Assembly (NCBI GenBank): GCA_934757845.1
Contig: CAKVLQ010000003.1
Coordinates: forward strand, 43,657-107,656
Reading direction: 5' to 3'
Length of the DNA: 64,000 nucleotides
Origin: an uncultured Clostridia bacterium
GTDB lineage: Bacteria; Bacillota; Clostridia; Christensenellales; UBA1242
The position numbers and the translations under genes are program-made. Under the pieces are notes generated by a model. That model saw only the letters and a program-made list of their open reading frames with translations, had not been told where the DNA came from and did not search any database. This document shows positions 42,498 through 63,136 of the stretch, piece after piece (the first letter of the stretch is position 1; each line of letters begins with the position of its first letter).

Positions 42498-42498
42498 A

Positions 42499-42810: not shown

Positions 42811-42816
42811 TAAAAA

Positions 42817-43084: not shown

Positions 43085-43100
43085 AATCATACTCTCCAAC

Positions 43101-43200: not shown

Positions 43201-43222
43201 GATTGATATATTGGAGAGTGAA

Positions 43223-45351: not shown

Positions 45352-45424
45352 TCCGGTATAAATCCGGTAAATTGTCGGCATTTGTCCGGTATTTATTGTA
45401 AATTCTTATAAAATATGTTATAAT
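45352..45424 (+). promoter_or_regulatory. BREX promoter with three TCCGGTA repeats
   Basis: TCCGGTA at 45352, 45363 and 45385. TTGTAA 45396-401, 17-nt spacer, TATAAT 45419-24 with an upstream TG. Confidence 0.5.
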
Positions 45425-45457: not shown

Positions 45458-46057
45458 ATGAAAGCAGAGTTAAAATATTCTTCACAAATTAAAGATATGG
45501 GATTGCTTGAAAAAGAAATGAAAATTGCGTGCCAAGAATACCAAAATACGAAGGATTTAGGTGTCATTATTCAGAAATCAATTAGTGATAACATCTTTAT
45601 GGTTAATACTGAAAGACGTAGGAAAGAACTTGCTTATAAGATTATTGCAAGAATGGCTGTTTTAGACGATTATCTAATTGAACAACTTGCTAATAGTCCA
45701 TACAACACAGCAGCTTTGCTTTCTTTGTATGCCTTAATGAAAACCGATAGAATGACATTTGAGTTTATGAATGAAGTTATTAAGGACAAGATTGAACTTA
45801 TGAATTATAGGTTGACAGATATTGAATTAAATCAATTTATCCTTTGCAAAGCACAACAAAGTGAACTTGTTGCAAAGTGGAAGGACAGCAACAAAATTCA
45901 AGTTAAATCAGCATTAAGAAAGATAATCACTGACGCTGGAATAATTAGGGATTTGGGTAGTGTTCTTATGATTATGCCACCAATCCTTGACAAACAAATA
46001 TACAATCACATTGTCGAATTAGGTGATAAAAAATATTTAGAAGCTATGGGAGTGTAA
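45458..46057 (+). CDS. brxA: BREX protein BrxA (DUF1819-type)
   Basis: About 200 aa, first gene of the canonical type I BREX order; called by synteny. Confidence 0.65.
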   Translation: MKAELKYSSQIKDMGLLEKEMKIACQEYQNTKDLGVIIQKSISDNIFMVNTERRRKELAYKIIARMAVLDDYLIEQLANSPYNTAALLSLYALMKTDRMTFEFMNEVIKDKIELMNYRLTDIELNQFILCKAQQSELVAKWKDSNKIQVKSALRKIITDAGIIRDLGSVLMIMPPILDKQIYNHIVELGDKKYLEAMGV

Positions 46058-46058
46058 A

Positions 46059-46631
46059 ATGACAACAGCAGATAAGTTGAACTTAATAGAAGGTAGGATA
46101 AAGGAACCAGACTTTATTAAAATAAGAAGTTTGGGAAATGAAGTTCCTTTCTATATATTCGATTATAATCCACAAGATGAATTTCAAGTTAGAGAACACT
46201 TGAAGGCTCTTGAACAAAAAATAAACAATGAAAACGGAAATATCAAAATAAAGATTATTGACTTGTTTGATGTTTTGGTTAATTGCTTAAAAGATAAGGG
46301 TTATCTTGATAGAGCAATAGACCTTGAAAAAAGATACGGAAGCGAAAAGTTTATTGACACAATAAAAAATTCACTTGGATTAAAAACTGAAAACAATGTA
46401 TTTGTTAAGAAAATTGTTGAACAGGTTGAACCAAATGAAGTATTGTTTATTACTGGTGTTGGGAAAATCTATCCAATTATGAGGTCGCACAAGTTGTTAA
46501 ACAACTTATTCCCATACATAACACAAAATCCATTAGTTTTATTCTTTCCGGGGTCATACTCAGGTTATGGATTGGATTTATTTGATGAGATTAAGGGCGA
46601 TAACTATTACAGGGCGTTTAAATTATTATAA
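46059..46631 (+). CDS. brxB: BREX protein BrxB (DUF1788-type)
   Basis: 190 aa, starts 1 nt after the brxA stop; called by synteny. Confidence 0.65.
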   Translation: MTTADKLNLIEGRIKEPDFIKIRSLGNEVPFYIFDYNPQDEFQVREHLKALEQKINNENGNIKIKIIDLFDVLVNCLKDKGYLDRAIDLEKRYGSEKFIDTIKNSLGLKTENNVFVKKIVEQVEPNEVLFITGVGKIYPIMRSHKLLNNLFPYITQNPLVLFFPGSYSGYGLDLFDEIKGDNYYRAFKLL

Positions 46632-46643
46632 GGAGCAAATGAA

Positions 46644-49600
46644 ATGATTATTAGAGATATATTTGAAAAACCTATTGATAGACCACTTGAAGGTGTTATT
46701 AAAGTTGGTAAAAACACGGAAGAAGCAGTTTTTGAAGAAGTAAATGAATACGTTGTTACAAAGGAATTAAGAGGCTATTTTTCAACATTCTTTGAGAAAT
46801 ATGCTGACGCTTTGAAAGCAAGAACCAATGATGTTGGTGTTTGGATTTCAGGTTTCTTTGGAAGTGGTAAATCTCACTTCTTGAAGATTTTGTCTTATAT
46901 TTTGGAAAACAGAGAAATTAGAGGTAAAAGAGCATATCAATATTTTGAAGATAAGATTGACGACCCAATGATTGTTGCCAATATGAAAGCTGCTTCTGAC
47001 TATAACAGTGATGTTTTACTTTTCAACATTGATAGTGTATCTGACGCTGACGCTAGAAGTAATAAAGAAGGCCTTGTTAAGGTATTCAATAAGATGTTCA
47101 ACAAAATGCAAGGCTTCTCTGAAAGTATGCCTTGGCTTGCCGAACTTGAAAGACAAATGGTTAAAAATGGCACTTATGAAGAATTTAAAAAGGAATTCCA
47201 AAACATAAGTGGCGATACTTGGGAAAATAGGAGAGATGACTTCTATTTTGAAGAAGATAACATTGTTGAAGCTCTTGCAAAAACAAACAATATTTCAGTT
47301 GAGGCTGCTAGAAATACATATCAAAGAGCAGAAAACAACTTTACTTTAAGTATTGACCAATTTGCTATCAAAGTAAGAGAATACATTGAAAATAAGGGCA
47401 GAAATCATAATGTTATCTTTATGATTGATGAAATGGGACAATACATTGGCAACGACTCTGGTTTAATGTTAAATCTTCAAACTATCGTTGAAAGACTTGG
47501 TGTTGAATGTGGTGGTCGTGCTTGGGTGTTTGTAACAAGCCAAGAAGCCATTGATACAGTTTCTAAAAATGTAAACAATAAAGACTTTTCTAAAATTCAA
47601 GGTAGATTTAGCATTAGAATTTCTCTTTCTTCTTCAAATGCTGATGAAGTTATCAAAAAGAGAATACTTGAAAAAACTGACCTTGCGAATGAAAGTTTGA
47701 AAGAACTTTATGGTAGAAAGAGTGCAGTTATCAAAAACCTTGTTTCATTTAGCGCTAACACACCAGATATTAAAGCATTTAAGGCAGATAAAGATTTCAC
47801 TGAAATTTATCCTTTCTTGCCATATCAATTTAACTTATTGCAATCTGCTTACAACAGCATAAGAAATCGTGGTGCGAGTGGTAAACACCTTTCAGAAGGT
47901 GAACGTTCATTACTTTCTGCATTTAAAGAAAGTGCCATGAGCAACGAAAACAAAGAGATTGGAGCAATCGTTCCATTTAGTGATTTCTATAACTCAATCG
48001 AAACATTCCTTGACCACGAAATTAGAAATGTAATGACAAGGGCAGAGAATAATGAAAACCTTGTAATGCCACAAGATTTGAGCCTTTTAAAGACATTATT
48101 CTTAATCAAAGACCTTGATGATAAAATGCCAGCAAATGTAGAGAACTTAACTACATTATCTTTAACAGGCATTGATGATGATAAAATTGCACTAAGAAAA
48201 CAAATCGAAGAAAGTATCAAGAGATTGTATTCTCAAAACTTAATTCAAAGAGATGGTGATAACTATATCTTCTTGACTAATGATGAACAAGATGTAAATC
48301 GTGAGATTTCTTCTATCAATTTGGACCCAAGCGAAATCATTAAGTTTATTGGTGATGAAATCTTCAATAGTGTTTGTGATATGAAATACAAATACAACAA
48401 TAATGTTTCGCCATTTGCATTTAACCAAATTATTGATGAAAATCCAAGAGGACAACAGGTTAGTGAACTTGGCCTTGCTATTTACACACCTTACTATGGA
48501 AACATTAGTGATGAAGATATTAAGTTAAAGACACAAATGAACCATTGGGTTGTAATCAGAATGGCAGACAATTCTTTGCTTACTGATGAAATCGAAGGTT
48601 ATTTGAAACTTGAAAAGTATATCAGAACAAGAAATACAAGAACATCATCTTCAAATATTCAGAAGATTATGACTTTGAAGGCTGATGAATTGAGAAGAAA
48701 GCAAGAAAGAGCCCTTAATTTAATCCTTGAAGGAATTGAAAAGGCTGACATCTTTGCTAATACATCTAAACTTGAAATTAAACAAAAAACACCAAAAGAA
48801 AGAATAAATGAAGCATTTAGAATTTTGGTTGAAAGCACATACACAAAACTTAACTACATTACTAAATATTACGATAAATCAAGCGATTTGCTTGCACTTG
48901 TATCAAGCACAAGACAAATGAGCATTGATGGCATTGTGCCAAACAATTTGGCTATTGCAGAGATGAAAAAATATGTTGAAATGCAATATGAAAGACGTAT
49001 GCCTATTACTTTGCGTAGTTTGAATGATAGGTTCCAAAAAATACCTTATGGTTGGAATGAACTTGATATTGCAGGCGTTGTAATATCTCTTATGAAAACT
49101 GATGACATCAAACTTGAACTTGCTGGCCAACCAATCGTAATTAGTGATAGTAAACTTGTAGATTACTTAACAAAGAGAGATTACAAAGAAAGAGTTGCAG
49201 TTAAATTAAAGATAAGAACAAGTGATGAAATCGTTGATAGCATTAAGAGAATATTCAAAAATGTCTTTGTTCAATCTGTTGGTTATACCAATGATGAAGA
49301 ACTTAAACAGATGATTACAAGAACTTGTGAATATGAAAAAGACCATTTGCAAGCTTTCTTGGGATTATATCCACAAAGTGGTTATTACAGAACTTATGAT
49401 TATCAATTAACATACATCAACGATATTCCTTATCATAACACATTCAAATATCCGGGCTATGACCTTGTAAATAAGAGTTATGAGTTATTTACTCAACTTG
49501 GCAAAATCAATGACGCTAGCACATTATTTAGCAAGTTTATTGATAGCGAAAACGAGTTGATGGAATACAAGAAGAACTTTGATGTTATCAAGAACTTCTT

Positions 49601-50237
49601 TGAAAACCAAAGAGCAATTTTTGAAAGAGGTTGCAATAGAATTGACATCTATGAACAAAACAAATCATTTATCCTTAATGATAATGCAAAGGGTATTGTT
49701 GATGAACTTCAAAGCATTGTAACACTTGAAAGTCCATATTCTGAAATACACCGTATTCCAGACCTTTGCCAAAGATTTGATAACATCTTAATCCATGTAT
49801 TGGAAAAGGAATCTGAACCAATTTGCAAGGAAATTGACGAAATGCAAAAAGATGTAATTGACGCCTATAATAGATACGAAATTACAATTCAAGCATTAGA
49901 TGTTCAATTCAAAATGCTTAAAGACAAAGCAACACAATCACAAATTGTTTCAACTATCAGAAATGTTAGGGAAGAAGCAATTAGACTTCGTGATGATTTG
50001 ATTAACAGAGCAACTGAAATTTACAAAGAAAGAATTAAAGAAGAACAAAAGAAAAACCCAAATGTTAAGATTGAAGTTAAGAAAATTAAGAAAAACATTT
50101 CATTGTCAGTAACTGAAATTCTTGGCAAATCAAATATTAAGTTAAGTTCTGAAAGCGATATTGACAACTTTGTAAATGACCTTAAATCAAAACTTAAAGA
50201 AAGACTTAATGATGATATTGTTATCAATATTAAGTAG
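46644..50237 (+). CDS. brxC: BREX P-loop ATPase BrxC/PglY
   Basis: 1197 aa with Walker A GFFGSGKSHFLK near residue 70 and Walker B IFMIDEMG. Confidence 0.8.
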   Translation: MIIRDIFEKPIDRPLEGVIKVGKNTEEAVFEEVNEYVVTKELRGYFSTFFEKYADALKARTNDVGVWISGFFGSGKSHFLKILSYILENREIRGKRAYQYFEDKIDDPMIVANMKAASDYNSDVLLFNIDSVSDADARSNKEGLVKVFNKMFNKMQGFSESMPWLAELERQMVKNGTYEEFKKEFQNISGDTWENRRDDFYFEEDNIVEALAKTNNISVEAARNTYQRAENNFTLSIDQFAIKVREYIENKGRNHNVIFMIDEMGQYIGNDSGLMLNLQTIVERLGVECGGRAWVFVTSQEAIDTVSKNVNNKDFSKIQGRFSIRISLSSSNADEVIKKRILEKTDLANESLKELYGRKSAVIKNLVSFSANTPDIKAFKADKDFTEIYPFLPYQFNLLQSAYNSIRNRGASGKHLSEGERSLLSAFKESAMSNENKEIGAIVPFSDFYNSIETFLDHEIRNVMTRAENNENLVMPQDLSLLKTLFLIKDLDDKMPANVENLTTLSLTGIDDDKIALRKQIEESIKRLYSQNLIQRDGDNYIFLTNDEQDVNREISSINLDPSEIIKFIGDEIFNSVCDMKYKYNNNVSPFAFNQIIDENPRGQQVSELGLAIYTPYYGNISDEDIKLKTQMNHWVVIRMADNSLLTDEIEGYLKLEKYIRTRNTRTSSSNIQKIMTLKADELRRKQERALNLILEGIEKADIFANTSKLEIKQKTPKERINEAFRILVESTYTKLNYITKYYDKSSDLLALVSSTRQMSIDGIVPNNLAIAEMKKYVEMQYERRMPITLRSLNDRFQKIPYGWNELDIAGVVISLMKTDDIKLELAGQPIVISDSKLVDYLTKRDYKERVAVKLKIRTSDEIVDSIKRIFKNVFVQSVGYTNDEELKQMITRTCEYEKDHLQAFLGLYPQSGYYRTYDYQLTYINDIPYHNTFKYPGYDLVNKSYELFTQLGKINDASTLFSKFIDSENELMEYKKNFDVIKNFFENQRAIFERGCNRIDIYEQNKSFILNDNAKGIVDELQSIVTLESPYSEIHRIPDLCQRFDNILIHVLEKESEPICKEIDEMQKDVIDAYNRYEITIQALDVQFKMLKDKATQSQIVSTIRNVREEAIRLRDDLINRATEIYKERIKEEQKKNPNVKIEVKKIKKNISLSVTEILGKSNIKLSSESDIDNFVNDLKSKLKERLNDDIVINIK

Positions 50238-50278
50238 CAAATAAAAAACAAAGAAAAAATATAAATGTGAGGGCACTG

Positions 50279-53200
50279 ATGAATAAATCTGCATTAAGAA
50301 ATTTCGCTGTTTGGGCGAGAAGGGATTTAATTAAAAGAATATCCGACCGAGCAAACTTGCTTGGTGTTTATGAAGATAAACCTACAAAGGAAATACAAGC
50401 AACAACTGAAAAGGGTTTTGTTGTTAATGGTGTTACTTTTAATTATAAAAAAGATATTAGAGACGCTTTTGTAAAAAGAGTGCAAGAACTTGGCTATCAA
50501 GACGCTATTGAAGAAATAGCTTATACTTGGTTTAACCGTATTGTTGCGCTTCGTTTTATGGAAGTTAATGGTTATCTTACAAATGGTAAAAATGGTGAGA
50601 AAATTTATGTGATTGGCTCTACTGTTGATGGTAAAAATGAACCAGATGCCCTTACTAATGCAGATAAACTTTCATTTGTAGATAAATTCACAGTTTATGA
50701 CTATCAAGACGCTAACGACAATAATGGCCTTTATAGATACATTCTTACAAAGCAATGTAATGATTTGAATAAAGCAATGCCATTGATGTTTGAAGAAATT
50801 GAAGATTATGCTGAACTCCTATTACCAGACCACTTGCTTGATAAAGGTGCAATCATTGACCACTTAGTTAATGATATTTCTGCAAAAGATTTCAATATAA
50901 CAGTTAAAGATGATGATGGTGAAAATTCCAGTCAAGTTGAAATAGTAGGGTGGTTATACCAATTCTATATTTCAGAAAAGAAAGATGAGGTTTTTGCTAG
51001 CAAAGACCAAATAAATAAAGGAACATTGCCAGCGGTTACTCAATTATTTACACCAGATTGGGTAGTAAAATATATGACAGATAACTCACTAGGCAAGATG
51101 TGGGTTGATGGGCATAAAAATTCAAAATTAAAACAAAGTCTTAAATATTTTGTTAAAGAAGCAGAGCAATCTGATGATGTAAAAGAAAAACTTGCTGAAA
51201 TTAACAAACAATATGCAGAAAAAAGAGTAACTGATATAACTTTTATTGACCCTTGTTGTGGTAGTGGTCATATTCTTGTTTACGCATTTGATTTATTCTA
51301 TAAGATGTATTTGGAAAGTGGCTATGTTTCAAATGAAATTCCAAGTATGATACTTAAAAATAATATCTTTGGTATAGATATTGATAAACGTGCTGTTCAA
51401 CTAACTTCTTTTGCATTGACTATGAAAGCATTGTCTTATGATAAAGATTTCTTGACAAAACAAATTTATCCTAATGTTATTGATATTAAGGAAAGTAATT
51501 CGCTTAATGTAAATGACATTAAAGAATTTTTCGATGTTGCAAGGCTTTCAAATAATGATGAAGAAGTTATTGAAGAAATTGTTGAAAAATTCAGGGACGC
51601 TGAGCTTTATGGTTCCTTAATTAAGGATTTTAGATACACACCAGAGAGATATGATGTAGTTTTGAAATATATTCAAAACAATGTTGACCCAGACGCCATA
51701 TTTAATCTTGTTGATAGAGTTGCTATAATTAACACAAAGCCTTTGATTTGTGATTTACTACGTCAGGCATTTATTTTGGGTTCAATGTATGACATTGTGG
51801 CAACTAACCCACCATATATGCCTACAACAAATAATGAAAAATTGAGTGAATTTGCAAAATTATACTATCCAGATAGTAAAACTGACCTTTTTGCCATGTT
51901 TATGGAAAATAATCTGGTAAAGAAGAATGGCCTGTTAGCAATGATAAATATGAATGCTTGGATGTTTTTAAGTAGTTATGCAGAATTGAGAAGTAAAATA
52001 ATAAATTCAATGGATATTTTATCCATGCTACACTTGGGGCCAAGAGCATTTGAAGAAATAGGTGGAGAAGTTGTTCAAACAACAACTTTTGTGATGAGAA
52101 GTCAAAGCGGCGTAAAAGGAAATTTTTATCGTTTAGTTAATTATAAAAATCCACTTGAAAAGGAAAAACAATTTTTGAATAACAAAAATTCTTTTTATAT
52201 CAAATCGACAAAAGAATTTGAAGTTATACCGGGAAAACCTATTGTTTACTGGATTTCAGATAATTTTATAAATTTGTTTAATAATGAATGTGTTGGGAAA
52301 AAATGCAAAACATTGAGAGGTTATGCAACAGCCAGCGGTGATGGATATGTCAGAGATTGGGTTGAAGTTGATTTTAAAAATATAAATTTTAATGCAAGTT
52401 CAAACGAAGAAGCTTATTTATCAAATTTAAAATGGTTTTTGTATAATAAAGGTGGTCAATATCGTAAATGGTATGGCAACAATTATAAAGTAGTTGACTA
52501 CTATAAAAATGGAGAACAATACAAAGAAATAAAGGGCTTTTGTTTTAGTAATCAAAGGGATTATTTTAAAGAAGGGATTACTTGGTCTAAAATATCAAGT
52601 GGGCATTCGAGTTTTAGATACAATGAAAAAGGTTATATTTTTGGTGATGCCGGTCCTGCTTTACAGACCACAACTAATTTAAAATATTATATGGCTTTGT
52701 TAAACTCCAATCTTGCAAACACTATACAATCTTTTATAAATCCTACACTAAATACAACAAATGAAACTGTAAATGCAATTCCAGTTTTGTTTAATGAAAG
52801 ATTTATTGATATAATTAAGAAGATAGTTAATCAAAATATTGTAAATTCAAAACTTGATTGGGACCAATATGAAACAAGTTGGGATTTCATCAAAAATCCA
52901 CTCTTGCCAAGTTATTTTGGTATAAATGCAAACTGGAATTTAGGTTCACAGTATGTGTCATATAAAAGTGTAATAAACCAACGTTTTGATGTCTTAAAAC
53001 AAAACGAAGAAGAACTTAATAAAATATTTATTGAAATTTATGGCCTTAATGATGAACTATTGCCAGATGTCGCTGACAAAGATATAACAGTTGCAAGAAT
53101 TTACGACACAAAAAATAAAATTCCAGATGAAATGAAAAATAATATTTATGTTAAAACAAAGCAAGATGTTGTAAAAGATTTGATTTCTTATATTGTTGGT

Positions 53201-53968
53201 TGTGCATTTGGGCGATATAGTCCATACAAAGAAGGATTGATTTTTGCTGGTGGAAAATTTAACTATGACCAATATATGGATATTACAAAAAGCTTAGAGC
53301 AACCACTTGTTCAAAATGGTTTGCAGAACTATGTTAAGTCATTTATGCCAAGTGAAGAAAATTGTATTTTACTTACAGATAATGACTATGGTGATAACAA
53401 AATGATTGATTTTGTAGTTAAATTTGTGAGACTTGTTTATGGTTCAGCAACTTTGGAAGAAAACTTGAAATTTATTGCAAATGCACTAGATGAGAAATCG
53501 ACAGATACACCACGCAATGTGATTAGAGAATATCTCGCAAATGATTTCTTTAAAGACCATTGTAAAAAATATCAAAATAGACCAATTTATTGGCAATTTG
53601 ACAGTGGAAAAAATGGTGGTTTTAGAGCTTTAATGTATATTCATAGATATGATGAAAATACAATACCAACTGCAAGATTGTCTTATTTACACGACATTCA
53701 ATGGAAATATGAGCAAGAAAAAGATAGACTTGAAAAATTGATAGAGAACTCTACAATCACAAGTGAAAAGGCGAAAGCACGTAAAGAACTTGACCTAATT
53801 GATAAACAAATTCTTGAATGTAAAGCCTATGATGAAGTGTTAAATCACGCTGCTAATATGAGAATATCAATCGACCTTGATGATGGTGTTAAAGTGAACT
53901 ATCAAAAATTCCAAAAACTAGATGGTGATAAAGATAAAAATATCTTATCAACTTACTTAAAATTTTAA
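50279..53968 (+). CDS. pglX: BREX N6-adenine DNA methyltransferase PglX
   Basis: N-terminus MNKSALRNFAVWAR, SAM motif FIDPCCGSGHIL and catalytic NPPY (VATNPPYMP). About 1230 aa. Confidence 0.85.
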   Translation: MNKSALRNFAVWARRDLIKRISDRANLLGVYEDKPTKEIQATTEKGFVVNGVTFNYKKDIRDAFVKRVQELGYQDAIEEIAYTWFNRIVALRFMEVNGYLTNGKNGEKIYVIGSTVDGKNEPDALTNADKLSFVDKFTVYDYQDANDNNGLYRYILTKQCNDLNKAMPLMFEEIEDYAELLLPDHLLDKGAIIDHLVNDISAKDFNITVKDDDGENSSQVEIVGWLYQFYISEKKDEVFASKDQINKGTLPAVTQLFTPDWVVKYMTDNSLGKMWVDGHKNSKLKQSLKYFVKEAEQSDDVKEKLAEINKQYAEKRVTDITFIDPCCGSGHILVYAFDLFYKMYLESGYVSNEIPSMILKNNIFGIDIDKRAVQLTSFALTMKALSYDKDFLTKQIYPNVIDIKESNSLNVNDIKEFFDVARLSNNDEEVIEEIVEKFRDAELYGSLIKDFRYTPERYDVVLKYIQNNVDPDAIFNLVDRVAIINTKPLICDLLRQAFILGSMYDIVATNPPYMPTTNNEKLSEFAKLYYPDSKTDLFAMFMENNLVKKNGLLAMINMNAWMFLSSYAELRSKIINSMDILSMLHLGPRAFEEIGGEVVQTTTFVMRSQSGVKGNFYRLVNYKNPLEKEKQFLNNKNSFYIKSTKEFEVIPGKPIVYWISDNFINLFNNECVGKKCKTLRGYATASGDGYVRDWVEVDFKNINFNASSNEEAYLSNLKWFLYNKGGQYRKWYGNNYKVVDYYKNGEQYKEIKGFCFSNQRDYFKEGITWSKISSGHSSFRYNEKGYIFGDAGPALQTTTNLKYYMALLNSNLANTIQSFINPTLNTTNETVNAIPVLFNERFIDIIKKIVNQNIVNSKLDWDQYETSWDFIKNPLLPSYFGINANWNLGSQYVSYKSVINQRFDVLKQNEEELNKIFIEIYGLNDELLPDVADKDITVARIYDTKNKIPDEMKNNIYVKTKQDVVKDLISYIVGCAFGRYSPYKEGLIFAGGKFNYDQYMDITKSLEQPLVQNGLQNYVKSFMPSEENCILLTDNDYGDNKMIDFVVKFVRLVYGSATLEENLKFIANALDEKSTDTPRNVIREYLANDFFKDHCKKYQNRPIYWQFDSGKNGGFRALMYIHRYDENTIPTARLSYLHDIQWKYEQEKDRLEKLIENSTITSEKAKARKELDLIDKQILECKAYDEVLNHAANMRISIDLDDGVKVNYQKFQKLDGDKDKNILSTYLKF

Positions 53969-53978
53969 GGAGGAATGA

Positions 53979-54839
53979 ATGAATAGATTAGTTAGTATTG
54001 ATTTTTCAAAAAAGGATAGTCAAGTTATTCCAATTACAGTAATAGGTGATGTAGATAAAATATATCCGGGATTTATTGATGATTTTGATAACATTACAAC
54101 GATAAAGAAAATAATACATCTTATAGATGAGCAACAGGTTACATTTTATGAACTTAAAAAAGATATTGAAGATTACTCAAAAAGAGAACCTATGTATTTC
54201 CCAAAATCAACACTTATCAAAATCAACAACGGATTGAAATCATTTTTAGGTAATATATTACCATTTTTGAATAACATTGAACCTTACTATGGAAAAGATG
54301 TATTTGACAAAATTAGACATTCATTTTACGACAATTATTTAGGTTATAGATTTACATACGAATTAAGAAATATTATGCAACATGGAAAATTAAATTTATC
54401 AGTAAATGAAGATAGTAACCATAATGTAGAAATTATTGCTGATAGAGACGATTTGATTGAAAAAGGAAAAGTAGTTAAAAATAAAGTATTAGAGTGGTTT
54501 AATAAGTTACCAGAAAAAATATCAGTGTTGCCACATATAAATTGCTTTTATAATGTCATGATAGAAATGGTAGAAGCTTTACTATCAAAAACATTTTCAA
54601 TGGATAAACATATTAGATTTATGACAAATATGCGAAAATATTTTAAACCTAATTGCGAATTATGTATTGAAATGAACATTAAAGAAGAAACAAAAGATGG
54701 TGTAACACAACGAAATATGACATTTGACTATATTCAACCACAGGTTATTCTGCAAAATATAGACCATTGCTTTAAGGCTAAATGTATTCAAAGAAGTGTT
54801 GGGAAAATATCTATAAATATAGATTATTTTAAAAGTTAG
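53979..54839 (+). CDS. unknown 286-aa protein embedded in the BREX operon, with Rx4H (HEPN-like) motif
   Basis: AGGAGG RBS, 10 nt after pglX and 9 nt before pglZ. ELRNIMQHG places R130 and H135 at nt 54366-54383. Confidence 0.6.
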   Translation: MNRLVSIDFSKKDSQVIPITVIGDVDKIYPGFIDDFDNITTIKKIIHLIDEQQVTFYELKKDIEDYSKREPMYFPKSTLIKINNGLKSFLGNILPFLNNIEPYYGKDVFDKIRHSFYDNYLGYRFTYELRNIMQHGKLNLSVNEDSNHNVEIIADRDDLIEKGKVVKNKVLEWFNKLPEKISVLPHINCFYNVMIEMVEALLSKTFSMDKHIRFMTNMRKYFKPNCELCIEMNIKEETKDGVTQRNMTFDYIQPQVILQNIDHCFKAKCIQRSVGKISINIDYFKS

Positions 54840-54848
54840 GAGAAAATA

Positions 54849-57395
54849 ATGAGCAAATTAGATTTTAAGGAAGTATCAAAAGAGTTGAATATTATGCTTA
54901 ACAAAAGGCCAAGAGATGGTCAAGTGCGTAATATCGTTTTTTGGTATGATGGTGAAGGTGAATTTAAGGATAAATTAGAGGAATTGGATTTGACCAATGC
55001 CAAAGTTTTAACATACACCGGAAGCAACTATTTTGAGATTAAATATACTTTGGAAGTGGTTGATTTAACATCAAATTACTTGATTTATTCGCCAACATAT
55101 AGACCAGCACCAGAATATAACTATTTGCTTGATATGTGTCTTTATAGCCAAGAATTTGAAGCCGATATAACAACAATCTATATGAGAGAATTTGGTATAG
55201 ATAATTCAGCTCTTGCGAATGTTGTTAAGAAATATAAGGATTTCTTGGGTAACAAAGATAGAAGAAATAAATTGAAGTCTTATGACATTAAAAAGTGGAG
55301 TGAAAACACAATTCATATTGCTGTTTTGTGTGCTGTTTGTAAACTTGATGTTATTGATTTTGAACAAGCATTGATGACAATCCTTGCAGATTATGCTTAT
55401 GGTGGAACATTGCTTGATGATGTAAAAAAATATTGCGATATGGAAACATTGGACAAGTTCATTGAAAACAAATTTGGTATTGTAAATGGCTTTGAAGATG
55501 TTGACAATATGATGACAAATATCTTGTTATTACATACATCTCTTTACTTAAAAGGAACATTGCCAGCAAGTTGGAAAACAAATTTGCCAGACACAAACAA
55601 TTTTGCTATCAAAAACAACGCATACATCTTTGTAGATAGATTTATGAAAAGTGATTTATCGGAAGCATATATCTTGCTTTCAGATAGGGTAGCAGAGAAA
55701 ATAAACTTTGAAAGAGTAACCAAAGATTGGGACATTGAAAGCTATGAAGATGTTGATACATTCGTTGGTTATGATAAACATATCATTGAAAGATTAAAAT
55801 CATCTTTAATTGATGGTGTAAATGAATTTGAGAGATATTTAAGTATTATCAAACAAAGAAGAAAATCTTTCTGGAATGATACATTGAAATTTGAATATCA
55901 AGCATTACATCATGCAACAAAATTCCTTTCAAAAGTTGAAGAAGAAAAGAAAGGCTTTGCACAAGGAACACCAGATATGTTGCTTGAAAAGTATGCTAAA
56001 AATTATTTTAAGTTTGACCAATATTATAGAGAATTTATCACTGCCTATGACAAAATTGAAGATAATGATTTCTCTGAATTGTTTAATAAAGTCGAAAATA
56101 CCTATACAAATTGGTATTTGAATGAATTATCGACTAAATGGTCAAATGAACTAAAACTAATCCCATACGAGAGTTTAAACACCTTGAAGCAATGGGATTT
56201 CTATAACAAATTCGTTAGAAATTCTAGTGAAAAAATTGCGGTTATTATTTCGGACGCATTGCGCTATGAATGTGGAGAAGAACTTAACAAAAGAATATCT
56301 AACACATTTAAAGCAAAAACAACATTATTCTCTGGAATCTCTAGCTTGCCAAGTTACACAGCACTTGGAATGGCTTGTTTGTTGCCACATAACAAAATTG
56401 AATATGTTGGCTCTGATGTCGTTGTTGATGGTATAAGTTCTGCAAGTTCAGAAAATCGTGAAAAGATTTTAAATAGCTTTACAGACGGTAAAGTTTACAA
56501 GTATGATGAATTTATCAAACCACAGAATTTCACACGAATAAAGGCCGAAACAAACGGAAAAAGAGTTATTTATATCTATCATAACTCAATAGACGCTGCT
56601 GGTGATAACATTTCAACTGAAAGCAAGGTGTTCAATGCAACAGAAGATTGCTTCAATGAAATACTTGCAATCGTTAAGAAATTGCAAAATATGTCAATTT
56701 CAAATGTTGTAATCACTGCTGACCATGGCTTCATTTACAAGAGAAATGATATTGCTGAAATGGATAAAACACCTAACGAAGTCAAAGATACAATCGTTTC
56801 AAAGAGAAGATTTGTTCTTGCGAGAAATTCAGAAGAACCAGAAATGGCAAGAAAATTATCTCTTGATTACTTAATGCCAAATACTGACATTGATGTAGTT
56901 GTTCCTTACGGTGTAAACCTATTTAAGAAACAAGGTGAAAGTAAGAAGTATGTTCATGGAGGAGATAGTTTACAAGAAATTGTAATTCCTATTATCCAAA
57001 TTGATAATAAGCGTTCTCAAAGAGAAAGATATGCTGCTAAAAATGTTACAATTAGTTGTGTATCATTGTCTAACAAAGTTACATCTCTTATCACATTCTT
57101 GGAATTCTTCCAAAATGAAAAGGTTACAGATAAATTGTTGCCTAGAAATTATGAGATTTACTTTGAAGATGAAGAAGGAAAGAGAATTTCTAACTCTGCT
57201 GTCGTTAGTGCTGATAGCAAGAGTGAAGAAGTTAAAGACCGTATGTATAAAGAGAAATTCACTTTGAGAAATCAAAAATACGACAAAAATAAACAATATT
57301 ATCTTGTTATTGCTGATTATGATGATAATTACGCGGAAAGGACAAAATTGCCATTTACAATAGATATTTTGATTGAAAATGACTTTGATTTATAG
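54849..57395 (+). CDS. pglZ: BREX alkaline-phosphatase-superfamily protein PglZ
   Basis: 848 aa with IISDALRYE and ITADHGF motifs. Confidence 0.85.
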   Translation: MSKLDFKEVSKELNIMLNKRPRDGQVRNIVFWYDGEGEFKDKLEELDLTNAKVLTYTGSNYFEIKYTLEVVDLTSNYLIYSPTYRPAPEYNYLLDMCLYSQEFEADITTIYMREFGIDNSALANVVKKYKDFLGNKDRRNKLKSYDIKKWSENTIHIAVLCAVCKLDVIDFEQALMTILADYAYGGTLLDDVKKYCDMETLDKFIENKFGIVNGFEDVDNMMTNILLLHTSLYLKGTLPASWKTNLPDTNNFAIKNNAYIFVDRFMKSDLSEAYILLSDRVAEKINFERVTKDWDIESYEDVDTFVGYDKHIIERLKSSLIDGVNEFERYLSIIKQRRKSFWNDTLKFEYQALHHATKFLSKVEEEKKGFAQGTPDMLLEKYAKNYFKFDQYYREFITAYDKIEDNDFSELFNKVENTYTNWYLNELSTKWSNELKLIPYESLNTLKQWDFYNKFVRNSSEKIAVIISDALRYECGEELNKRISNTFKAKTTLFSGISSLPSYTALGMACLLPHNKIEYVGSDVVVDGISSASSENREKILNSFTDGKVYKYDEFIKPQNFTRIKAETNGKRVIYIYHNSIDAAGDNISTESKVFNATEDCFNEILAIVKKLQNMSISNVVITADHGFIYKRNDIAEMDKTPNEVKDTIVSKRRFVLARNSEEPEMARKLSLDYLMPNTDIDVVVPYGVNLFKKQGESKKYVHGGDSLQEIVIPIIQIDNKRSQRERYAAKNVTISCVSLSNKVTSLITFLEFFQNEKVTDKLLPRNYEIYFEDEEGKRISNSAVVSADSKSEEVKDRMYKEKFTLRNQKYDKNKQYYLVIADYDDNYAERTKLPFTIDILIENDFDL

Positions 57396-57405
57396 GAGAT
57401 GAAAG

Positions 57406-59484
57406 ATGAACGAATTTGATAAAAAATTGAATGAAGTTTTTGCCGGCAGAGTTGTTAGAAAAGACTTATCAAAGAAGATAAAAGAAGGAATAAATGTTCC
57501 TATCTATGTTTTGGAATATTTACTTGGAATGTATTGCTCAACTGATGACGAAGATAGCATTAAAGAAGGTGTTAAACAAGTAAAGAAAATACTTGCTGAA
57601 AACTATGTCAGACCAGATGAAGCAGAAAAAGTAAAGTTCAAAATTACTGAAAAAGGCTCTTATACAGTCATTGATAGAGTTGAAGTTACAGTTGATGTTG
57701 AAAAAGGCATTTGCTTTGCTAGTCTTATGAATTTAGGACTAACTAGAATTCCAATCCACGCAGATTACGTAAAGAAATTTGAGAAATTACTTGCAGGTGG
57801 AATTTGGTGTATTGTTAAACTTGGCTACTTTGATGAAGAAGAAAATGCAGACCTTGAACAAGCCGCCAAAGAAGTAAAGAAAAAAGACAAAGAAAAAGAT
57901 TTGGGTGGGGTATTGGTAGTTGATAATATCAAGCCTATCCAAATGCCAAATCTTGATATTCAAGAGATTTTTAACGGTAGAAAACAATTTACAGTTGAAG
58001 AATGGAAAGACATTATTTTAAGGTCTATCGGTATGGAGCCAACACAACTTAAACCAAGAGAGAAAATGCACTTGATTGAAAGATTGGTTCCACTCGTTGA
58101 AAACAACTACAATATGTGCGAATTAGGACCACGTTCAACTGGTAAATCTCACGTATATAAAGAAATTTCGCCAAACTCAATCTTGATTTCAGGTGGTCAA
58201 ACTACTGTTGCAAACTTGTTTTACAATATGGGCAGACGCCAAATTGGACTTGTAGGTCATTGGGATTGCGTTGCATTTGATGAAGTTGCTGGTATCCAAT
58301 TCAAGGAAAAAGATGGAATTCAAATAATGAAGGACTATATGAACTCCGGTTCTTTTGCTCGTGGTAAAGACCAAATCACAGCAAGTGCTTCTATGGTGTT
58401 CGTAGGTAATATCAATTTGAGTGTTGATGTTCTTTTAAAGACATCTAACTTATTCCAACCATTCCCAGAAGTTATGGCTAATGACACAGCTTTCTTTGAC
58501 CGTATGCACTATTATTTGCCGGGTTGGGAAGTTCCAAAGTTTGCTCCAAAGTATTTTACTGATGAGTATGGCTTTGTTACTGATTATGTATCTGAATTTT
58601 TCAGAACAATGAGAAAATACAACTATTCAGACGCATTTGATAAATACTTTAAGCTTGGTTCGACATTAAACCAAAGAGATACAGTTGCTGTTAGAAAAAC
58701 CGTATCTGGCCTTGTAAAAATCCTTTATCCAAATGGCGAATACACCAAAGAGGATATTGAAGAACTTTTGAGATACGCTTTGGAAGGTAGAAGAAGGGTA
58801 AAAGAGCAATTAAAGAGAATTGGTGGTATGGAATTCTATGCAGTTAATTTCTCTTATATTGACAATGAAACATTTGAGGAAAAATATGTTGGTGTTCCAG
58901 AACAAGGAAATGACAAACTTATTCCAGAAGGTCAAAACAAACCGGGCACAGTTTATTGTGTTCAAAGGTCTGACACAGGAGTTTTTGGTGTTTATCGTAT
59001 TGAAAACGAATGTATTTCTGGTAGTGGAAAGTTCACTAGAACTGGTGTATCTTCACAAGAATGTAAAGATAGCATAAATAATGCAATCAACTACTTTAAG
59101 GCAAATAAACAACACATTAGTGCAAATATTAGCACAACAACATCTGATTACTTGATGGATTATAGAGATTTGCAAGGCGTAGGAAATGCTACTGACTTAT
59201 CATTGCCAACACTTGTATCTCTTGCTTCTGCTGCTTTGAAAAAAGATGTTCTACCAAGACTTGTTGTTCTTGGAAGTATAAGCATAAGTGGTTCAATCAA
59301 TAGACTTGAAGAACTTGCAAATGTTTTACAAGTTGTTCACGACGCTGGTGCTACAAAGGTTTTATTGCCAAATAACGCCAAGAAACAGGTCGTAGATGTT
59401 CCAGATGACTTACTTAACTCATTAACTCTATTGTTCTATAATTCGCCAGAGGACGCCGTATTTAAGGCACTTGGAGTGGAGTAG
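57406..59484 (+). CDS. brxL: BREX Lon-like protease BrxL
   Basis: N-terminal F.GRVVRKDL....VP.YVLEYLLG.YC, AAA+ Walker A GPRSTGKSH, and a C-terminal Lon-protease-like domain. Confidence 0.85.
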   Translation: MNEFDKKLNEVFAGRVVRKDLSKKIKEGINVPIYVLEYLLGMYCSTDDEDSIKEGVKQVKKILAENYVRPDEAEKVKFKITEKGSYTVIDRVEVTVDVEKGICFASLMNLGLTRIPIHADYVKKFEKLLAGGIWCIVKLGYFDEEENADLEQAAKEVKKKDKEKDLGGVLVVDNIKPIQMPNLDIQEIFNGRKQFTVEEWKDIILRSIGMEPTQLKPREKMHLIERLVPLVENNYNMCELGPRSTGKSHVYKEISPNSILISGGQTTVANLFYNMGRRQIGLVGHWDCVAFDEVAGIQFKEKDGIQIMKDYMNSGSFARGKDQITASASMVFVGNINLSVDVLLKTSNLFQPFPEVMANDTAFFDRMHYYLPGWEVPKFAPKYFTDEYGFVTDYVSEFFRTMRKYNYSDAFDKYFKLGSTLNQRDTVAVRKTVSGLVKILYPNGEYTKEDIEELLRYALEGRRRVKEQLKRIGGMEFYAVNFSYIDNETFEEKYVGVPEQGNDKLIPEGQNKPGTVYCVQRSDTGVFGVYRIENECISGSGKFTRTGVSSQECKDSINNAINYFKANKQHISANISTTTSDYLMDYRDLQGVGNATDLSLPTLVSLASAALKKDVLPRLVVLGSISISGSINRLEELANVLQVVHDAGATKVLLPNNAKKQVVDVPDDLLNSLTLLFYNSPEDAVFKALGVE

Positions 59485-59485
59485 A

Positions 59486-60088
59486 ATGGGATTTTCAGAA
59501 AAAATTAGAAGGCAAGCATTGGTTGCTTGTAGAAGAAGATGTGTGATGTGTGGCAAATTTAAAGGAATAAAGATAGAAGTTCATCATCTAATTCCAGTAG
59601 CAATGGGTGGAAGTAACGATTTTGATAATGCAATACCATTATGTTTTGATTGTCATGCAGATATTGGTCAAAAGTTTTACAGAGAACATGCAAAGGGAAC
59701 GAAATATAGTGTTCCAGAGTTAAAGCAACAAAGAGATAAATTCTATAAAATGATAGAAAATAATCCAAAATCGGAAATTTCAGTAGAAGCAGCAGAAAAA
59801 TTAGAGATTATTAAACTGATTTTTGATTGTCTATTCAAAAGAGAAGAAGATGTTATTGGGTTTAATAATCACTATAATGCGATGAATTGGTCTTATGAAA
59901 TGGTATATCAATCACTTAACAATGCTATTTCTTTTGAGTGCTTTAATGAGTTGATTTGTCTTTTACGAAAAAAAGGTTATGTAAAAACGGATAATTTAAG
60001 AAAAACAAAAAATAATACGATAGATGGATTGATTTGTGGAACAAAAATTGGATTGATTTTTTATGTTGAAAATTTTTTAGAGGCTTAA
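59486..60088 (+). CDS. HNH endonuclease-domain protein appended to the BREX operon
   Basis: ATG 1 nt after the brxL stop. HNH motif C..C...HHLIPVAMGGSNDFDNAIPLCFDCH. The C-terminal 110 aa or so are unassigned. Confidence 0.65.
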   Translation: MGFSEKIRRQALVACRRRCVMCGKFKGIKIEVHHLIPVAMGGSNDFDNAIPLCFDCHADIGQKFYREHAKGTKYSVPELKQQRDKFYKMIENNPKSEISVEAAEKLEIIKLIFDCLFKREEDVIGFNNHYNAMNWSYEMVYQSLNNAISFECFNELICLLRKKGYVKTDNLRKTKNNTIDGLICGTKIGLIFYVENFLEA

Positions 60089-60259: not shown

Positions 60260-60286
60260 GGATTTCAGCAATGAGGTCCTTTTTTT
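60260..60286. terminator. rho-independent terminator with GCAA tetraloop
   Basis: GGATTTCA-gcaa-TGAGGTCC stem plus T7, with an A7 run upstream. Confidence 0.5.
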
Positions 60287-60300
60287 CTTGTCAGAAATAC

Positions 60301-60361
60301 TTGCTTATATCAAACAAATGTTCTATAATACAATCATAAATGGAACGGGGTGTTCCATTTT
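60301..60361 (+). promoter_or_regulatory. lexA promoter with candidate SOS boxes
   Basis: TTGCTT 60301-06, 17-nt spacer, TATAAT 60324-29. AAACAAATGTTC 60312-23 is one mismatch from GAAC-N4-GTTC. Palindrome AAATGGAAC-ggggt-GTTCCATTT lies at 60339-61. Confidence 0.45.
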
Positions 60362-60376
60362 GAGAAGGAGGTTCTT

Positions 60377-60976
60377 ATGAAAGCTGCTATTCAAGAAAAA
60401 GTGCTTGATGATATGGTTGAGTTCATTGATAAGTATCAACACGAATATGGTAAATCGCCTTCGTATCGTGTAATTATGAAAACAATGAAGTTCAATGGAA
60501 TTGCAACCGTATTTAGGTATGTGGCAAAGTTAGAAGCACAAGGTAGATTAAGAAAAACTCATCTCGGTGGAATTGAAATACCACAAAGCCTAAATCCAAG
60601 CAAAACCATTATCGCCCCGTTGGTAGGCTCGGTTGCTTGCGGAATTCCAATCCTTGCCACAGAAAACATTGAAGGCACATATTCCTTGCCATCTGATTTA
60701 TTTGGAACTGGACCAACATTTTTATTACAAGCCAAAGGTGAAAGTATGTTAAATGCTGGAATTCACGACAAAGACATTCTAGTTGTTAGGAAATGCTCAT
60801 GTGCTGATGATGGTGAAATAGTCGTAGCTTTACTTGGTGATGAAGCCACCGTCAAAAGATTATATCGAAAGAATAACAAAATTATCTTACACCCAGAGAA
60901 TGAAAGATTTAAGGACATCATAGTAGATAATGTTGAAATTCTAGGGAAGGTAATTAGTTCTATTCATCAATTCTAA
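60377..60976 (+). CDS. lexA: LexA-type repressor (S24 peptidase)
   Basis: N-terminal wHTH, cleavage-site-like VACG, catalytic Ser (AKGESM) and Lys (VKRL). GAAGGAGG RBS. Confidence 0.75.
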   Translation: MKAAIQEKVLDDMVEFIDKYQHEYGKSPSYRVIMKTMKFNGIATVFRYVAKLEAQGRLRKTHLGGIEIPQSLNPSKTIIAPLVGSVACGIPILATENIEGTYSLPSDLFGTGPTFLLQAKGESMLNAGIHDKDILVVRKCSCADDGEIVVALLGDEATVKRLYRKNNKIILHPENERFKDIIVDNVEILGKVISSIHQF

Positions 60977-61000
60977 CAAACTGGGAGGTTGATTAAAGAA

Positions 61001-61189
61001 ATGTATGATGTTGAACTACTTTGCCCACATTGTAAAAAGGTCGTGGGTAAATCTTATGCAAGTGATAATACTGGTTATATTAAGGCCCTAAAATCAGAGC
61101 CAAAAGATGTAAAAGCGAAAGAAAGAACATTCCAATGCAAATGTAAATGCGGAAAACTCATTTATATTGTAATGGGATTTAAAGATTAA
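61001..61189 (+). CDS. small zinc-ribbon protein
   Basis: Contains CPHC...CKCKCG; GGGAGG RBS. Confidence 0.45.
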   Translation: MYDVELLCPHCKKVVGKSYASDNTGYIKALKSEPKDVKAKERTFQCKCKCGKLIYIVMGFKD

Positions 61190-61467
61190 AATTTAATATT
61201 TTTTAGAGGCCATTAGAGCCCATAGATACCTGCGTGTATCAATTATTATGGAAGCTAACTAATGGTCTTTTTATTTTCGACAAAGTTAGTAAATGTTTGA
61301 CAATATATGTTGAAATATTCTCATACAATACCCGAATGGGTATTGTAAAATTATAGTGTAATCTTGAAGTGCTATGCGAATACATAAAAGGGAGAGATTG
61401 CCTATGAGATTGTTTTTATACTGGAAACGACCTAAACTATATATTGTAAATAACAAAATAATAATTG

Positions 61468-61523
61468 AAACCCTAGTTTCTTTGCGGTGCTATATGCGCT
61501 AAAAACGGAACTAGGGTTTTTTT
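61468..61523 (+). terminator. long-stem terminator in a 450-nt non-coding region
   Basis: AAACCCTAGTTTC...GGAACTAGGGTTT stem followed by Ts. Confidence 0.55.
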
Positions 61524-61637
61524 ATCAAAAATTTTCAAAAAAAATTAAAAAACTTTTCCCGTTGCACACAACGGGTGTGTATCGACATTGTTAAGATGAT
61601 GGTGTCAAAAACGAAAAGAAAGGAGGTGAGATAACGA

Positions 61638-62021
61638 ATGGATTTGAAAAAATCAAGCATTACTGCTGATATTTTGAATATTTTATCTGATTGCAAAATT
61701 CATACAATGCAAGAAATTGCAGATGAAATAGAAGTTCATAGAAATACAGTAGCAAAGCATATACAATCACTTTCATATCGTTATCCAATCCAATCTATTC
61801 GTGGTGGCATAAATCGTGGTGGGGTATGTTTAGATAAAGATTACATACATCAAGGAAAAGTATTAACCAATGATGAACTGCAAGTCATCAACAAAGCTCT
61901 CACATTGTTGCAGAAGTGTGGAAGCGAAGATGTTAATCCAGAATTGATTGCTAATCTATTATCAAGATTTTCTCAACCACAACAAGAGGAGCAAGATAAT
62001 GGAGAAAGAAAACTTGGTTAA
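61638..62021 (+). CDS. wHTH DNA-binding protein
   Basis: HTMQEIADEIEVHRNTVAKHIQSL; AGGAGG RBS. Confidence 0.55.
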   Translation: MDLKKSSITADILNILSDCKIHTMQEIADEIEVHRNTVAKHIQSLSYRYPIQSIRGGINRGGVCLDKDYIHQGKVLTNDELQVINKALTLLQKCGSEDVNPELIANLLSRFSQPQQEEQDNGERKLG

Positions 62022-62517
62022 TGAACCAGAAAGAGATGATAGCAAAGACATAGTTACTATTGATTACTATGACAGAATAAACAAAAGATGGATAAAACTT
62101 GATGTTACAAAAGAAGTTGCAAGATTATTGCACACTGAAAATGAAAGAACTCGTAGAGCAAATAATCGTTATAATCATCACAACTTATCATTTGATGAAG
62201 TATTTGACAGTAACAAAGATGATAATCCTAAAAATGAATATCTGATTGATGAAAACGCAAGTCCAGATGTCATTATGGAGAAAAAAGAACAAGCAAAAAT
62301 AGATGCAATGATGAGAGATGAACAAAGAACACTTGTAGAAAATGCTTTGCCTAGTTTAACACCAACTCAAAGAGCAACATTGAAAATGGCTTTTTATAAA
62401 AATATGAGTTATCGAGATATAGCAATAAAACGAAATGTTACAAAGGCTGCTGTTGCAAAAACAATTAAGAAAGCACAAAAAAACATTAGGAATTTTATTG
62501 AAAATCCAGAAAATTAA
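61999..62517 (+). CDS. sigma-70 region-4-like HTH protein
   Basis: LTPTQRATLKMAFYKNMSYRDIAIKRNVTKAAVAKTIKKA. ATG 61999 follows GAGGAG. Confidence 0.6.
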   Translation: MEKENLVNEPERDDSKDIVTIDYYDRINKRWIKLDVTKEVARLLHTENERTRRANNRYNHHNLSFDEVFDSNKDDNPKNEYLIDENASPDVIMEKKEQAKIDAMMRDEQRTLVENALPSLTPTQRATLKMAFYKNMSYRDIAIKRNVTKAAVAKTIKKAQKNIRNFIENPEN

Positions 62518-62680
62518 AAAATTTTTAAACTTTTTTTCAAAAAATGGGCAAAAGGGGGTTAACGATTTGAAACTTCGTGTGGTTAACATTATGAGGGGAC
62601 ATAAAAGTTTTATGAATTTTGATACTCGTTGGAACCCGAGCTCATTCCAAAAAAAATTCAAATTAAACAAGGAGTATAAA

Positions 62681-63136
62681 ATGCAAGAACAATTTACAGT
62701 TAGAATTTATGATTTGAAACTTGTAAACAAAATAAAAAGTTTACAAAAACAACTCAGTGGTATTTATCAATCAAAACTAAATCCATTTTTGGTTGACTGT
62801 ATCATCAAAGGTATGGAAGTTATAGAAAGAGAAAGATTGGGAGTGAGAACACCACAAAATGTTTCTGAACTTTATGAAGAAGTGCAAGTTACTATTGAGA
62901 AACTTACAAAACTTATCAAGATGTGTGAAACAAACGCAAAAGAAATTATGGCAAATCTCACAATCAATCAAAAGCTCTTAACAAATAACTACAATATGCT
63001 TTTGGGTATTTCAGAAAATGCTCCTATTGATAGAGAGGGCATTGAAGAAGGTTCTTATGATGAACTGCCAAGCAGATTTGAAGAAGAACTTGAAAGCATT
63101 TTGGAAGATGTGTTAAAGGTTGTTCTTAAAAAGTAA
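62681..63136 (+). CDS. hypothetical protein upstream of the relaxase (possible relaxosome accessory factor)
   Basis: AAGGAG RBS before ATG 62681; function inferred from position only. Confidence 0.4.
   Translation: MQEQFTVRIYDLKLVNKIKSLQKQLSGIYQSKLNPFLVDCIIKGMEVIERERLGVRTPQNVSELYEEVQVTIEKLTKLIKMCETNAKEIMANLTINQKLLTNNYNMLLGISENAPIDREGIEEGSYDELPSRFEEELESILEDVLKVVLKK

Follow-up and report, generated by a model that had tools for sequence, protein, structure and literature searches.

What is the role of a gene that lies between pglX and pglZ in a bacteriophage exclusion (BREX) operon and is recognised by none of Pfam, NCBIfam or PADLOC? The question is raised by a 64,000-nucleotide stretch of contig CAKVLQ010000003.1 from an uncultured Clostridia bacterium (the window; positions below count from its first letter), in which an open reading frame of 286 amino acids (ORF286) has a complete type 1 BREX set (brxA, brxB, brxC, pglX, pglZ, brxL) for neighbours. 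Analysis of the gene, its homologs and related loci revealed a real gene under purifying selection with an invariant Rx4H motif, which, on comparison of the loci, is an exchangeable add-on and not a BREX component. The reading we prefer, to which we give an even chance, is that ORF286 is a stand-alone HEPN-like endoribonuclease forming a back-up abortive layer that is expressed with BREX. The gene is placed as follows.

53979 to 54839, plus strand: ORF286, ATG start, 286 amino acids, member of an undescribed family and putative HEPN-like effector (open reading frame list and translation)

A reading made earlier from the sequence alone (the sequence-only reading) had named ELRNIMQHG, with R130 and H135, as the only recognisable feature of the protein, and our analysis also found it to be the sole Rx4-6H match within ORF286. 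The Rx4H motif by itself is weak evidence: shuffling of the ORF286 protein produced Rx4H in 22% of shuffles and RNx3H in 2%. It is conservation that lifts the motif above chance. In alignments of 18 and of 42 homologs, which share 13-30% identity with ORF286, only Y123, R130 and H135 were invariant in both. Conservation of the R130/H135 pair, proposed earlier as a check, is thus complete in the larger alignment. The near-invariant residues in the 42-member alignment are Y127 (41/42), L90 and F109 (40/42 each), R124 (39/42) and F125 (37/42), followed by N83 and E101 (36/42 each) and D118 (35/42). Position 131, directly after R130, is occupied by asparagine or lysine across the homologs and is therefore polar. 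The pair is also kept in the family member found on the Bacillus subtilis plasmid pBS32. The codons concerned are listed below.

54366 to 54383, plus strand: R130-N-I-M-Q-H135, the Rx4H motif and candidate catalytic pair (R130 and H135 in 42/42 homologs)
54345 to 54359, plus strand: Y123-R124-F125-T126-Y127, conserved aromatic/basic patch, one helical turn ahead of the motif
54279 to 54281, plus strand: E101, conserved acidic residue two helices upstream of the motif (glutamate in 36/42 homologs)

AlphaFold prediction on the 42-sequence alignment gave a confident model (predicted local distance difference test, pLDDT, 89; predicted template modelling score, pTM, 0.85) and was used in place of a run on three sequences, which was unusable (pLDDT 38.7). 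The model begins with two N-terminal strands, a long helix (32-67) and four consecutive helices (76-91, 93-104, 106-119 and 121-135). Residues 140-155 then form a beta-hairpin, which leads into three further helices (156-174, 184-205, 208-221), a second, long hairpin at 226-252 and a final helix. All conserved polar residues are predicted to fall in the four consecutive helices between 76 and 135: E101 in the second, D118 at the end of the third, Y123, R124, Y127 and R130 in the fourth, and H135 as the last residue of the fourth. The Rx4H motif is thus modelled at the C-terminal end of helix 121-135, with a loop and a hairpin next, and E101 stands two helices upstream with one helix between. 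E101 is followed by K106 in Ex4K spacing (in HEPN domains the acidic residue often lies within Ex3[KR]) and belongs to predicted helix 93-104.

According to the HEPN reference analysis, helix 3 ends in the Rx4-6H motif, whose arginine is followed by a polar residue, and helix 2 carries an acidic residue; inserts occur between helices 2 and 3, and a hairpin follows the motif in Csx1 (PMC3710099). In the predicted model, the linear order of E101, intervening helix, Rx4H motif and hairpin agrees with the HEPN layout. The earlier expectation of a HEPN-like helical fold is therefore borne out in one part, the region being alpha-helical in the model with the motif at a helix end, and fails in the other, as no HEPN fold or family was recognised by Pfam, Foldseek or hhalign.

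The results that weigh against a HEPN assignment are of several kinds. Relaxing the threshold to E<=10 still left all 42 members without a match to a Pfam HEPN model. Foldseek searches of PDB and BFVD with the confident model returned nothing below E 0.26 and no HEPN entry among the best 50 matches listed per library; the matches listed were generic helical bundles only (such as translin, syntaxin and designed bundles), with probabilities of 0.41 or less, and were discarded. Alignment by hhalign against a 60-sequence Ymh/TIGR02391 HEPN alignment gave a probability of 0.3%, and the greedy version of this non-significant alignment superposes LRNxxQH on the Ymh vRNvtAH and E101 on a conserved Ymh glutamate. 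Comparison of the family profile with single Ymh and HepT sequences was likewise not significant, and hmmsearch of PDB sequences with the family profiles gave chance matches only (E>0.2). At 12-16 residues, the helices in which the conserved positions lie are short; neither an antitoxin nor a partner gene is evident; and a four-helix up-down bundle was not recognised by structure or profile comparison with known HEPN domains. Since neither Foldseek nor the Ymh profile gave a significant match, HEPN membership is unproven; the motif, its conservation and the predicted topology make it plausible. Of the proposal that ORF286 is an abortive-infection (Abi)-type HEPN ribonuclease (RNase) effector, the invariant motif and the fitting accessory-effector context stand, and the HEPN RNase part is what we infer from motif and topology.

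Under the preferred reading, in which ORF286 would act as a HEPN-like back-up effector, we infer RNase chemistry, auto-inhibition, a trigger and synergy with BREX along the following lines. As a stand-alone defence cassette, ORF286 would take up the pglX-pglZ slot, which is open to variable cargo, and would be expressed with the BREX operon through translational coupling. R130 and H135 would form the catalytic pair for metal-independent RNA cleavage, with E101, D118, Y123, R124 and Y127 completing the active site. Two flanking parts, the strands and long helix at the N-terminus and the hairpin and helix at the C-terminus, may jointly hold the protein inactive before infection, and its release during infection would provide an abortive-infection back-up layer once BREX is bypassed or inhibited. 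The broader idea of an accessory, second-line effector agrees with the placement of the gene, the conservation of the motif and the defence-island homologs described below.

The alternative that survives best is a defence effector with a new, non-HEPN fold, in which the Y/R/H/E/D cluster would act on DNA, on a nucleotide or NAD (nicotinamide adenine dinucleotide)-like cofactor or on a signalling molecule, or would sense a phosphate-bearing ligand. We regard it as a possibility to be taken seriously, although an unlikely one. In its favour, searches of PDB and BFVD with the confident model gave no structural neighbour, and none of the profile comparisons tied the family to HEPN; the invariant Y123 and the near-invariant R124 and Y127 lie outside the usual HEPN signature, and the defence-island context suits this explanation as well as it suits an RNase. 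Against these points stand the Rx4H pair, the polar residue after the arginine, the helix end and the upstream glutamate, which are the defining features of HEPN active sites (PMC3710099). HEPN families are also notorious for their divergence, and Foldseek and hidden Markov model methods often fail to find them. A more ambitious version, a new-fold enzyme family whose Tyr-Arg-His centre has chemistry new to phage defence or senses a signal made by the phage or by BREX, combined with a dedicated, repeat-flanked exchange site between pglX and pglZ, is in our estimate rather improbable.

Comparison of related loci revealed how ORF286 is held in the operon. The 72% identical ortholog (P0003) lies 9 nt upstream of pglZ in every one of loci L001-L006, a position kept despite other insertions in the operon (a Schlafen/AlbA_2 gene before pglX; a Ymh HEPN gene). 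The 75% identical ortholog (P0002) comes from a contig of only 954 nt, so its genomic context lies outside that contig. No ORF286 homolog is present in any of 16 related BREX loci identified by a PglZ scan of representative genomes. The pglX-pglZ slot is empty in L023, L026, L034 and L038, and holds a KAP-family nucleoside triphosphatase (NTPase) in L025, YhcG/DUF1016 PD-(D/E)XK nucleases in L029 and L033 with an NS-type endonuclease also in L029, an unrelated 286-amino-acid protein in L027, and a 146-amino-acid coiled-coil protein with a C-terminal hydrophobic segment in L024. The clearest case is the comparison of L002 with L024. On either side of the slot the two loci share 99% identity in their DNA, over 3.2 kb and 3.35 kb, and PglZ identity between them is 99.5%; in between, the ORF286 body (L002 3205-4060) is swapped exactly for the 146-amino-acid gene (L024 9539-9989), with swap boundaries that coincide exactly with the two cassette junctions. 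In L026, PglZ is 93% identical to that of L001, yet ORF286 is precisely missing. The L002/L024 swap and the precise absence in L026 lead to the conclusion that the slot is a recombination-exchangeable cargo site.

These loci bear directly on a second alternative, that ORF286 is a lineage-specific BREX accessory subunit that works through physical contact with PglZ or PglX, for instance by modulating PglZ nuclease activity or by serving as an adaptor. Its constant position 9 nt upstream of pglZ, despite cargo elsewhere in the operon, would suit a subunit, as would the apparent translational coupling and a divergence that roughly keeps pace with the core. The window and L001 share 72% identity in ORF286 and 78-92% in the BREX core proteins; ORF286 has been with this operon for some time and evolves somewhat faster than the core. 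However, ORF286 is missing from L024, L025 and L026, whose PglZ proteins match the PglZ of an ORF286-bearing locus at 93-99% identity, the count among the related loci from the genome collection is 0/16, and the distant homologs occur with type I/II restriction-modification (R-M) systems, with GmrSD, with an HNH gene or alone, and never with PglZ. BREX in this lineage evidently does not need ORF286, and we consider the subunit explanation improbable. The sequence-only reading had offered a new BREX accessory component as one of its two options; near-identical loci that lack or replace the gene, and distant homologs away from BREX, disfavour this option for a dedicated BREX part. Its statement that ORF286 is outside canonical BREX agrees with the lack of a PADLOC BREX model match and with the missing or swapped gene in related loci.

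The two ends of the cassette resemble each other.

53951 to 53994, plus strand: 5' junction (pglX end, ribosome-binding site, first ORF286 codons), imperfect direct repeat of the 3' junction
54821 to 54864, plus strand: 3' junction (ORF286 end, ribosome-binding site, first pglZ codons); the L001 equivalents of the two junctions are 9973-10016 and 10843-10886

The junctions are identical at 26/44 positions in the window and at 30/44 in L001, and form the top pair among the gene starts of the operon (median 18-19), an excess that is modest and partly explained by the shared ribosome-binding site. The 5' form reads pglX end, ribosome-binding site and ATG-..AAATTAG, and the 3' form reads ORF286 end, ribosome-binding site and ATG-AGCAAATTAG. 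The start residues are also alike: ORF286 begins with M-D/N-K/R-L and the unrelated L027 cargo with MSKFDY, both similar to MSKLDF, with which PglZ begins. The resemblance of the junctions suggests either a junction duplication or a microhomology used for exchange, and together with the first codons it may be a trace of cassette entry into the slot.

Other cargo in these loci was also recorded. The 146-amino-acid protein of L024 (9535-9975) and the 286-amino-acid protein of L027 (2891-3751) have no Pfam match, a coiled-coil-rich look and a hydrophobic end, which suggests that they may be small membrane-anchored effectors. The L027 gene, upstream of pglZ, was considered as an ORF286 ortholog and was dropped as unrelated. 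In L002 (2-3191), L003 (1-3580) and L024 (5019-9525) pglX is split into an N-terminal open reading frame of 886 amino acids, which is complete in L024 and truncated at the contig end in L002 and L003, plus a C-terminal one of 343/347 amino acids that ends in STYLKF, the same as intact PglX. A Ymh/TIGR02391 HEPN gene (PF09509, 266 amino acids) lies between the two parts; an established HEPN gene is thus lodged within the methyltransferase gene, and in L002 and L003 the Ymh gene and the ORF286 ortholog share one operon. A 343-amino-acid protein of no evident identity beside Ymh, first taken as a further cargo gene, was dropped, being the C-terminal part of the split PglX. The Schlafen/AlbA_2 gene (358 amino acids, L001:4957-6033) lies between brxC and pglX, and a 362-amino-acid open reading frame occupies the same position in L026 (4856-5944); if both are the same gene, the brxC-pglX interval would be a second cargo position.

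Nine distinct contexts of distant homologs were examined. The gene was found between a methylase/endonuclease pair of the AlwI type, which it follows, and AbiTii-like and SEC-C proteins; after a type I hsdR and before SLATT_4 and SMODS genes on an integrase-bearing element; after an hsdR-Mrr-hsdM-hsdS-GmrSD series; after hsdS and an ABC/AAA_15-21 ATPase with a TIR protein close by; directly after a set of helicase, N6/N4 methylase and HNH genes; beside HepT/MNT; behind an Xre-type gene that overlaps it; in the accessory region of pBS32, a prophage-like plasmid of Bacillus subtilis NCIB 3610; and alone among housekeeping genes. In every one of them it is a single gene with no conserved partner, and tandem paralogs beside the homologs were looked for and none found. 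The earlier proposal to survey homologs for defence islands thus has a positive answer, as the homologs are concentrated in such islands with R-M, GmrSD, SMODS/SLATT, TIR and HepT/MNT neighbours. This is the pattern of a module for defence or abortive infection that is complete in itself and settles beside restriction-type systems. The pBS32 member (WP_009968507.1, 279 amino acids, L021:4084-4923) aligns to the family by hhalign at 98.9%, YRFLYKLRNLAQH; its gene is located between a DNA ligase gene and a tetratricopeptide repeat (TPR) gene, upstream of terminase genes, and tblastn matches to this type of member are found in 38 Bacillus plasmid records.

The same neighbourhoods contain what evidence there is for a third alternative, in which ORF286 belongs, as the toxin, to a toxin-antitoxin-like or addiction module whose role is to stabilise the BREX island or a mobile element and not to act against phage. 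One homolog lies behind the overlapping Xre-type helix-turn-helix (HTH) gene, another near HepT/MNT, and the island in the window borders conjugative-element genes. We give this explanation a slim chance, as a small cognate partner gene is absent from the window and from most other contexts, and ORF286 is embedded in a defence operon and expressed with it.

The family is rare and has very few members. Among 5.8 billion clusters, a word-indexed search turned up two close relatives only (72-75% identity); 19 proteins reached E<=1e-3 when all of 1.84 billion representatives were scanned with HMMER, and a profile search added about 25 further clusters; phage genomes gave no tblastn match to the family. 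ORF286 has no match in Pfam, NCBIfam or PADLOC (PADLOC-DB v2), and the 42 homologs have no consistent match in these libraries, PADLOC giving only scattered single-member matches (best E 7.7e-4). The sole profile match of ORF286 is PHROG 30874 (E 7.8e-7, residues 105-184, the motif region), a family of unknown function whose membership brings no functional information. A CheR match (E 0.04, below the cut-off) was discarded as noise, and all database copies that carry a name are called hypothetical protein. The description of the gene as unannotatable therefore holds. Between ORF286 and its 72% ortholog the nonsynonymous rate (dN) is 0.17 and the synonymous rate (dS) 1.28, values comparable with those of brxC, pglZ and brxL, and dN/dS is about 0.13. 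The explanation that ORF286 is a functionless passenger or a mis-called reading frame, for which only the empty annotation libraries speak, is effectively refuted by this purifying selection, by a full-length frame kept at 72-75% identity, by homologs down to 13% identity with an invariant motif and by the confident structure prediction.

The setting of the gene in the window is as follows.

53967 to 53973, plus strand: ribosome-binding site AAGGAGG, overlapping the pglX stop codon, 5 nt ahead of the ORF286 ATG (read from the sequence)
50267 to 53968, plus strand: pglX, BREX methyltransferase, upstream neighbour (PADLOC PglX, E=0; Pfam Eco57I)
54849 to 57395, plus strand: pglZ, downstream neighbour (PADLOC PglZ, 1.3e-256; Pfam PglZ)
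45458, 46059 and 46644: starts of brxA, brxB and brxC, with brxL at 57406-59484
43824 to 44819, plus strand: WYL/WCX (BrxR-like) regulator gene upstream of the operon (Pfam WYL, 3.6e-10; WCX, 1.6e-7)
45458 to 60088, plus strand: transcription unit brxA-brxB-brxC-pglX-ORF286-pglZ-brxL-HNH, from gene identities and promoter-like and terminator-like sites

The gaps are 10 nt between pglX and ORF286 and 9 nt between ORF286 and pglZ; the own ribosome-binding site, the spacing and the pglX-pglZ position reported by the sequence-only reading were all confirmed. A promoter-like site (45396-45424) lies ahead of brxA, and from brxA through the HNH gene after brxL there is no terminator-like site, the first hairpin being at 60260-60279. 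ORF286 is thus inside the BREX transcription unit, and the lack of an internal terminator-like site backs the earlier claim of co-transcription. No competing open reading frame of more than 43 amino acids overlaps ORF286 on either strand, and no supported small partner frame of at least 30 amino acids occurs within or beside it. The HNH endonuclease gene (59486-60088, plus strand; Pfam HNH, 7e-12) abuts the end of brxL in the same transcription unit and is a second non-core nuclease in the BREX operon of the window. The island is flanked on one side (window 39957-43723) by sporulation and repair genes (spoVAC, spoVAD, Y-family polymerase, YpsA/SLOG) and on the other (window 60350-63136) by genes for a LexA-like S24 peptidase, an HTH protein and a sigma-70 region 4 protein. 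In a matching contig the latter block runs on into MobL relaxase and TraG/VirD4-like genes; the BREX island is therefore placed at the edge of a conjugative element, in a spore-forming clostridial metagenome-assembled genome of 29% GC.

If the effector reading is true, an uncatalogued family joins the back-up modules that ride inside BREX operons. What is new in this study is the ORF286 family itself, for which Pfam, NCBIfam and PADLOC have no entry and the structure searches no neighbour, and a clean demonstration of the pglX-pglZ junction as a cassette-exchange slot in this clostridial lineage. The conceptual gain is modest because HEPN and other nucleases embedded in BREX have already been published. 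A 2013 analysis described HEPN genes that lie within R-M and Pgl operons (Anantharaman et al., PMC3710099), and a 2026 survey reported HEPN, Schlafen, PIN, HNH, PD-(D/E)XK, HKD and TOPRIM/OLD effectors inside BREX loci and proposed them as auxiliary or suicide back-ups (PMC12839542). The loci described here offer natural comparison sets, since BREX loci with PglZ 93-99% identical hold ORF286, a 146-amino-acid membrane-type protein, a KAP NTPase or nothing; they are ready-made constructs for the study of how embedded effectors complement BREX. The pBS32 member in Bacillus subtilis NCIB 3610 makes the family testable in a tractable host.

Among known systems, HEPN-MNT (HepT/MntA) would share with ORF286 the possible Rx4H RNase toxin chemistry. 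Unlike it, ORF286 has pglX and pglZ as neighbours and no adjacent MNT or antitoxin gene, is more than twice the size of HepT, and gave an empty hhalign result against a HepT sequence. Ymh/TIGR02391 (PF09509) is a solo protein of similar size (266 amino acids) inserted in the same BREX lineage (L002, L003, L024), with an RNxxxH and a conserved glutamate about 20-30 residues upstream; both features are superposed on those of ORF286 by the greedy profile alignment, at 0.3% probability. The Ymh motif is near the C-terminus (about residue 220 of 266), whereas that of ORF286 is central (130 of 286), and the coexistence of Ymh and an ORF286 ortholog in one operon (L002, L003) means that the two are not simple alternatives.

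ORF286 is also like, in architecture, the single-protein HEPN Abi proteins (AbiD/AbiF = Abi_2, AbiJ, AbiU2, AbiV) and the solo R-M-embedded HEPN genes (PMC3710099). Like ORF286 as modelled, these are single genes for proteins of about 250-350 amino acids with a helical core and an R-[polar]-x3-H at a helix end; their upstream acidic residue has a candidate counterpart in the conserved E101, and they are found in or beside R-M-type operons and on mobile elements. ORF286 differs from them in having no sequence or profile similarity to them (Pfam, PADLOC) and no Foldseek neighbour, and in its extra features, the invariant Y123, the near-invariant R124 and Y127 and the beta-hairpin inserts. By sequence it also belongs to none of the nuclease superfamilies catalogued in the BREX survey (PMC12839542). 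In position and proposed role, ORF286 resembles the BREX-embedded effectors of that survey, BrxU/GmrSD on pEFER and the PARIS system embedded in Salmonella BREX (PMC11341690): each is non-core cargo inside a BREX operon and is proposed to provide a second layer of defence.
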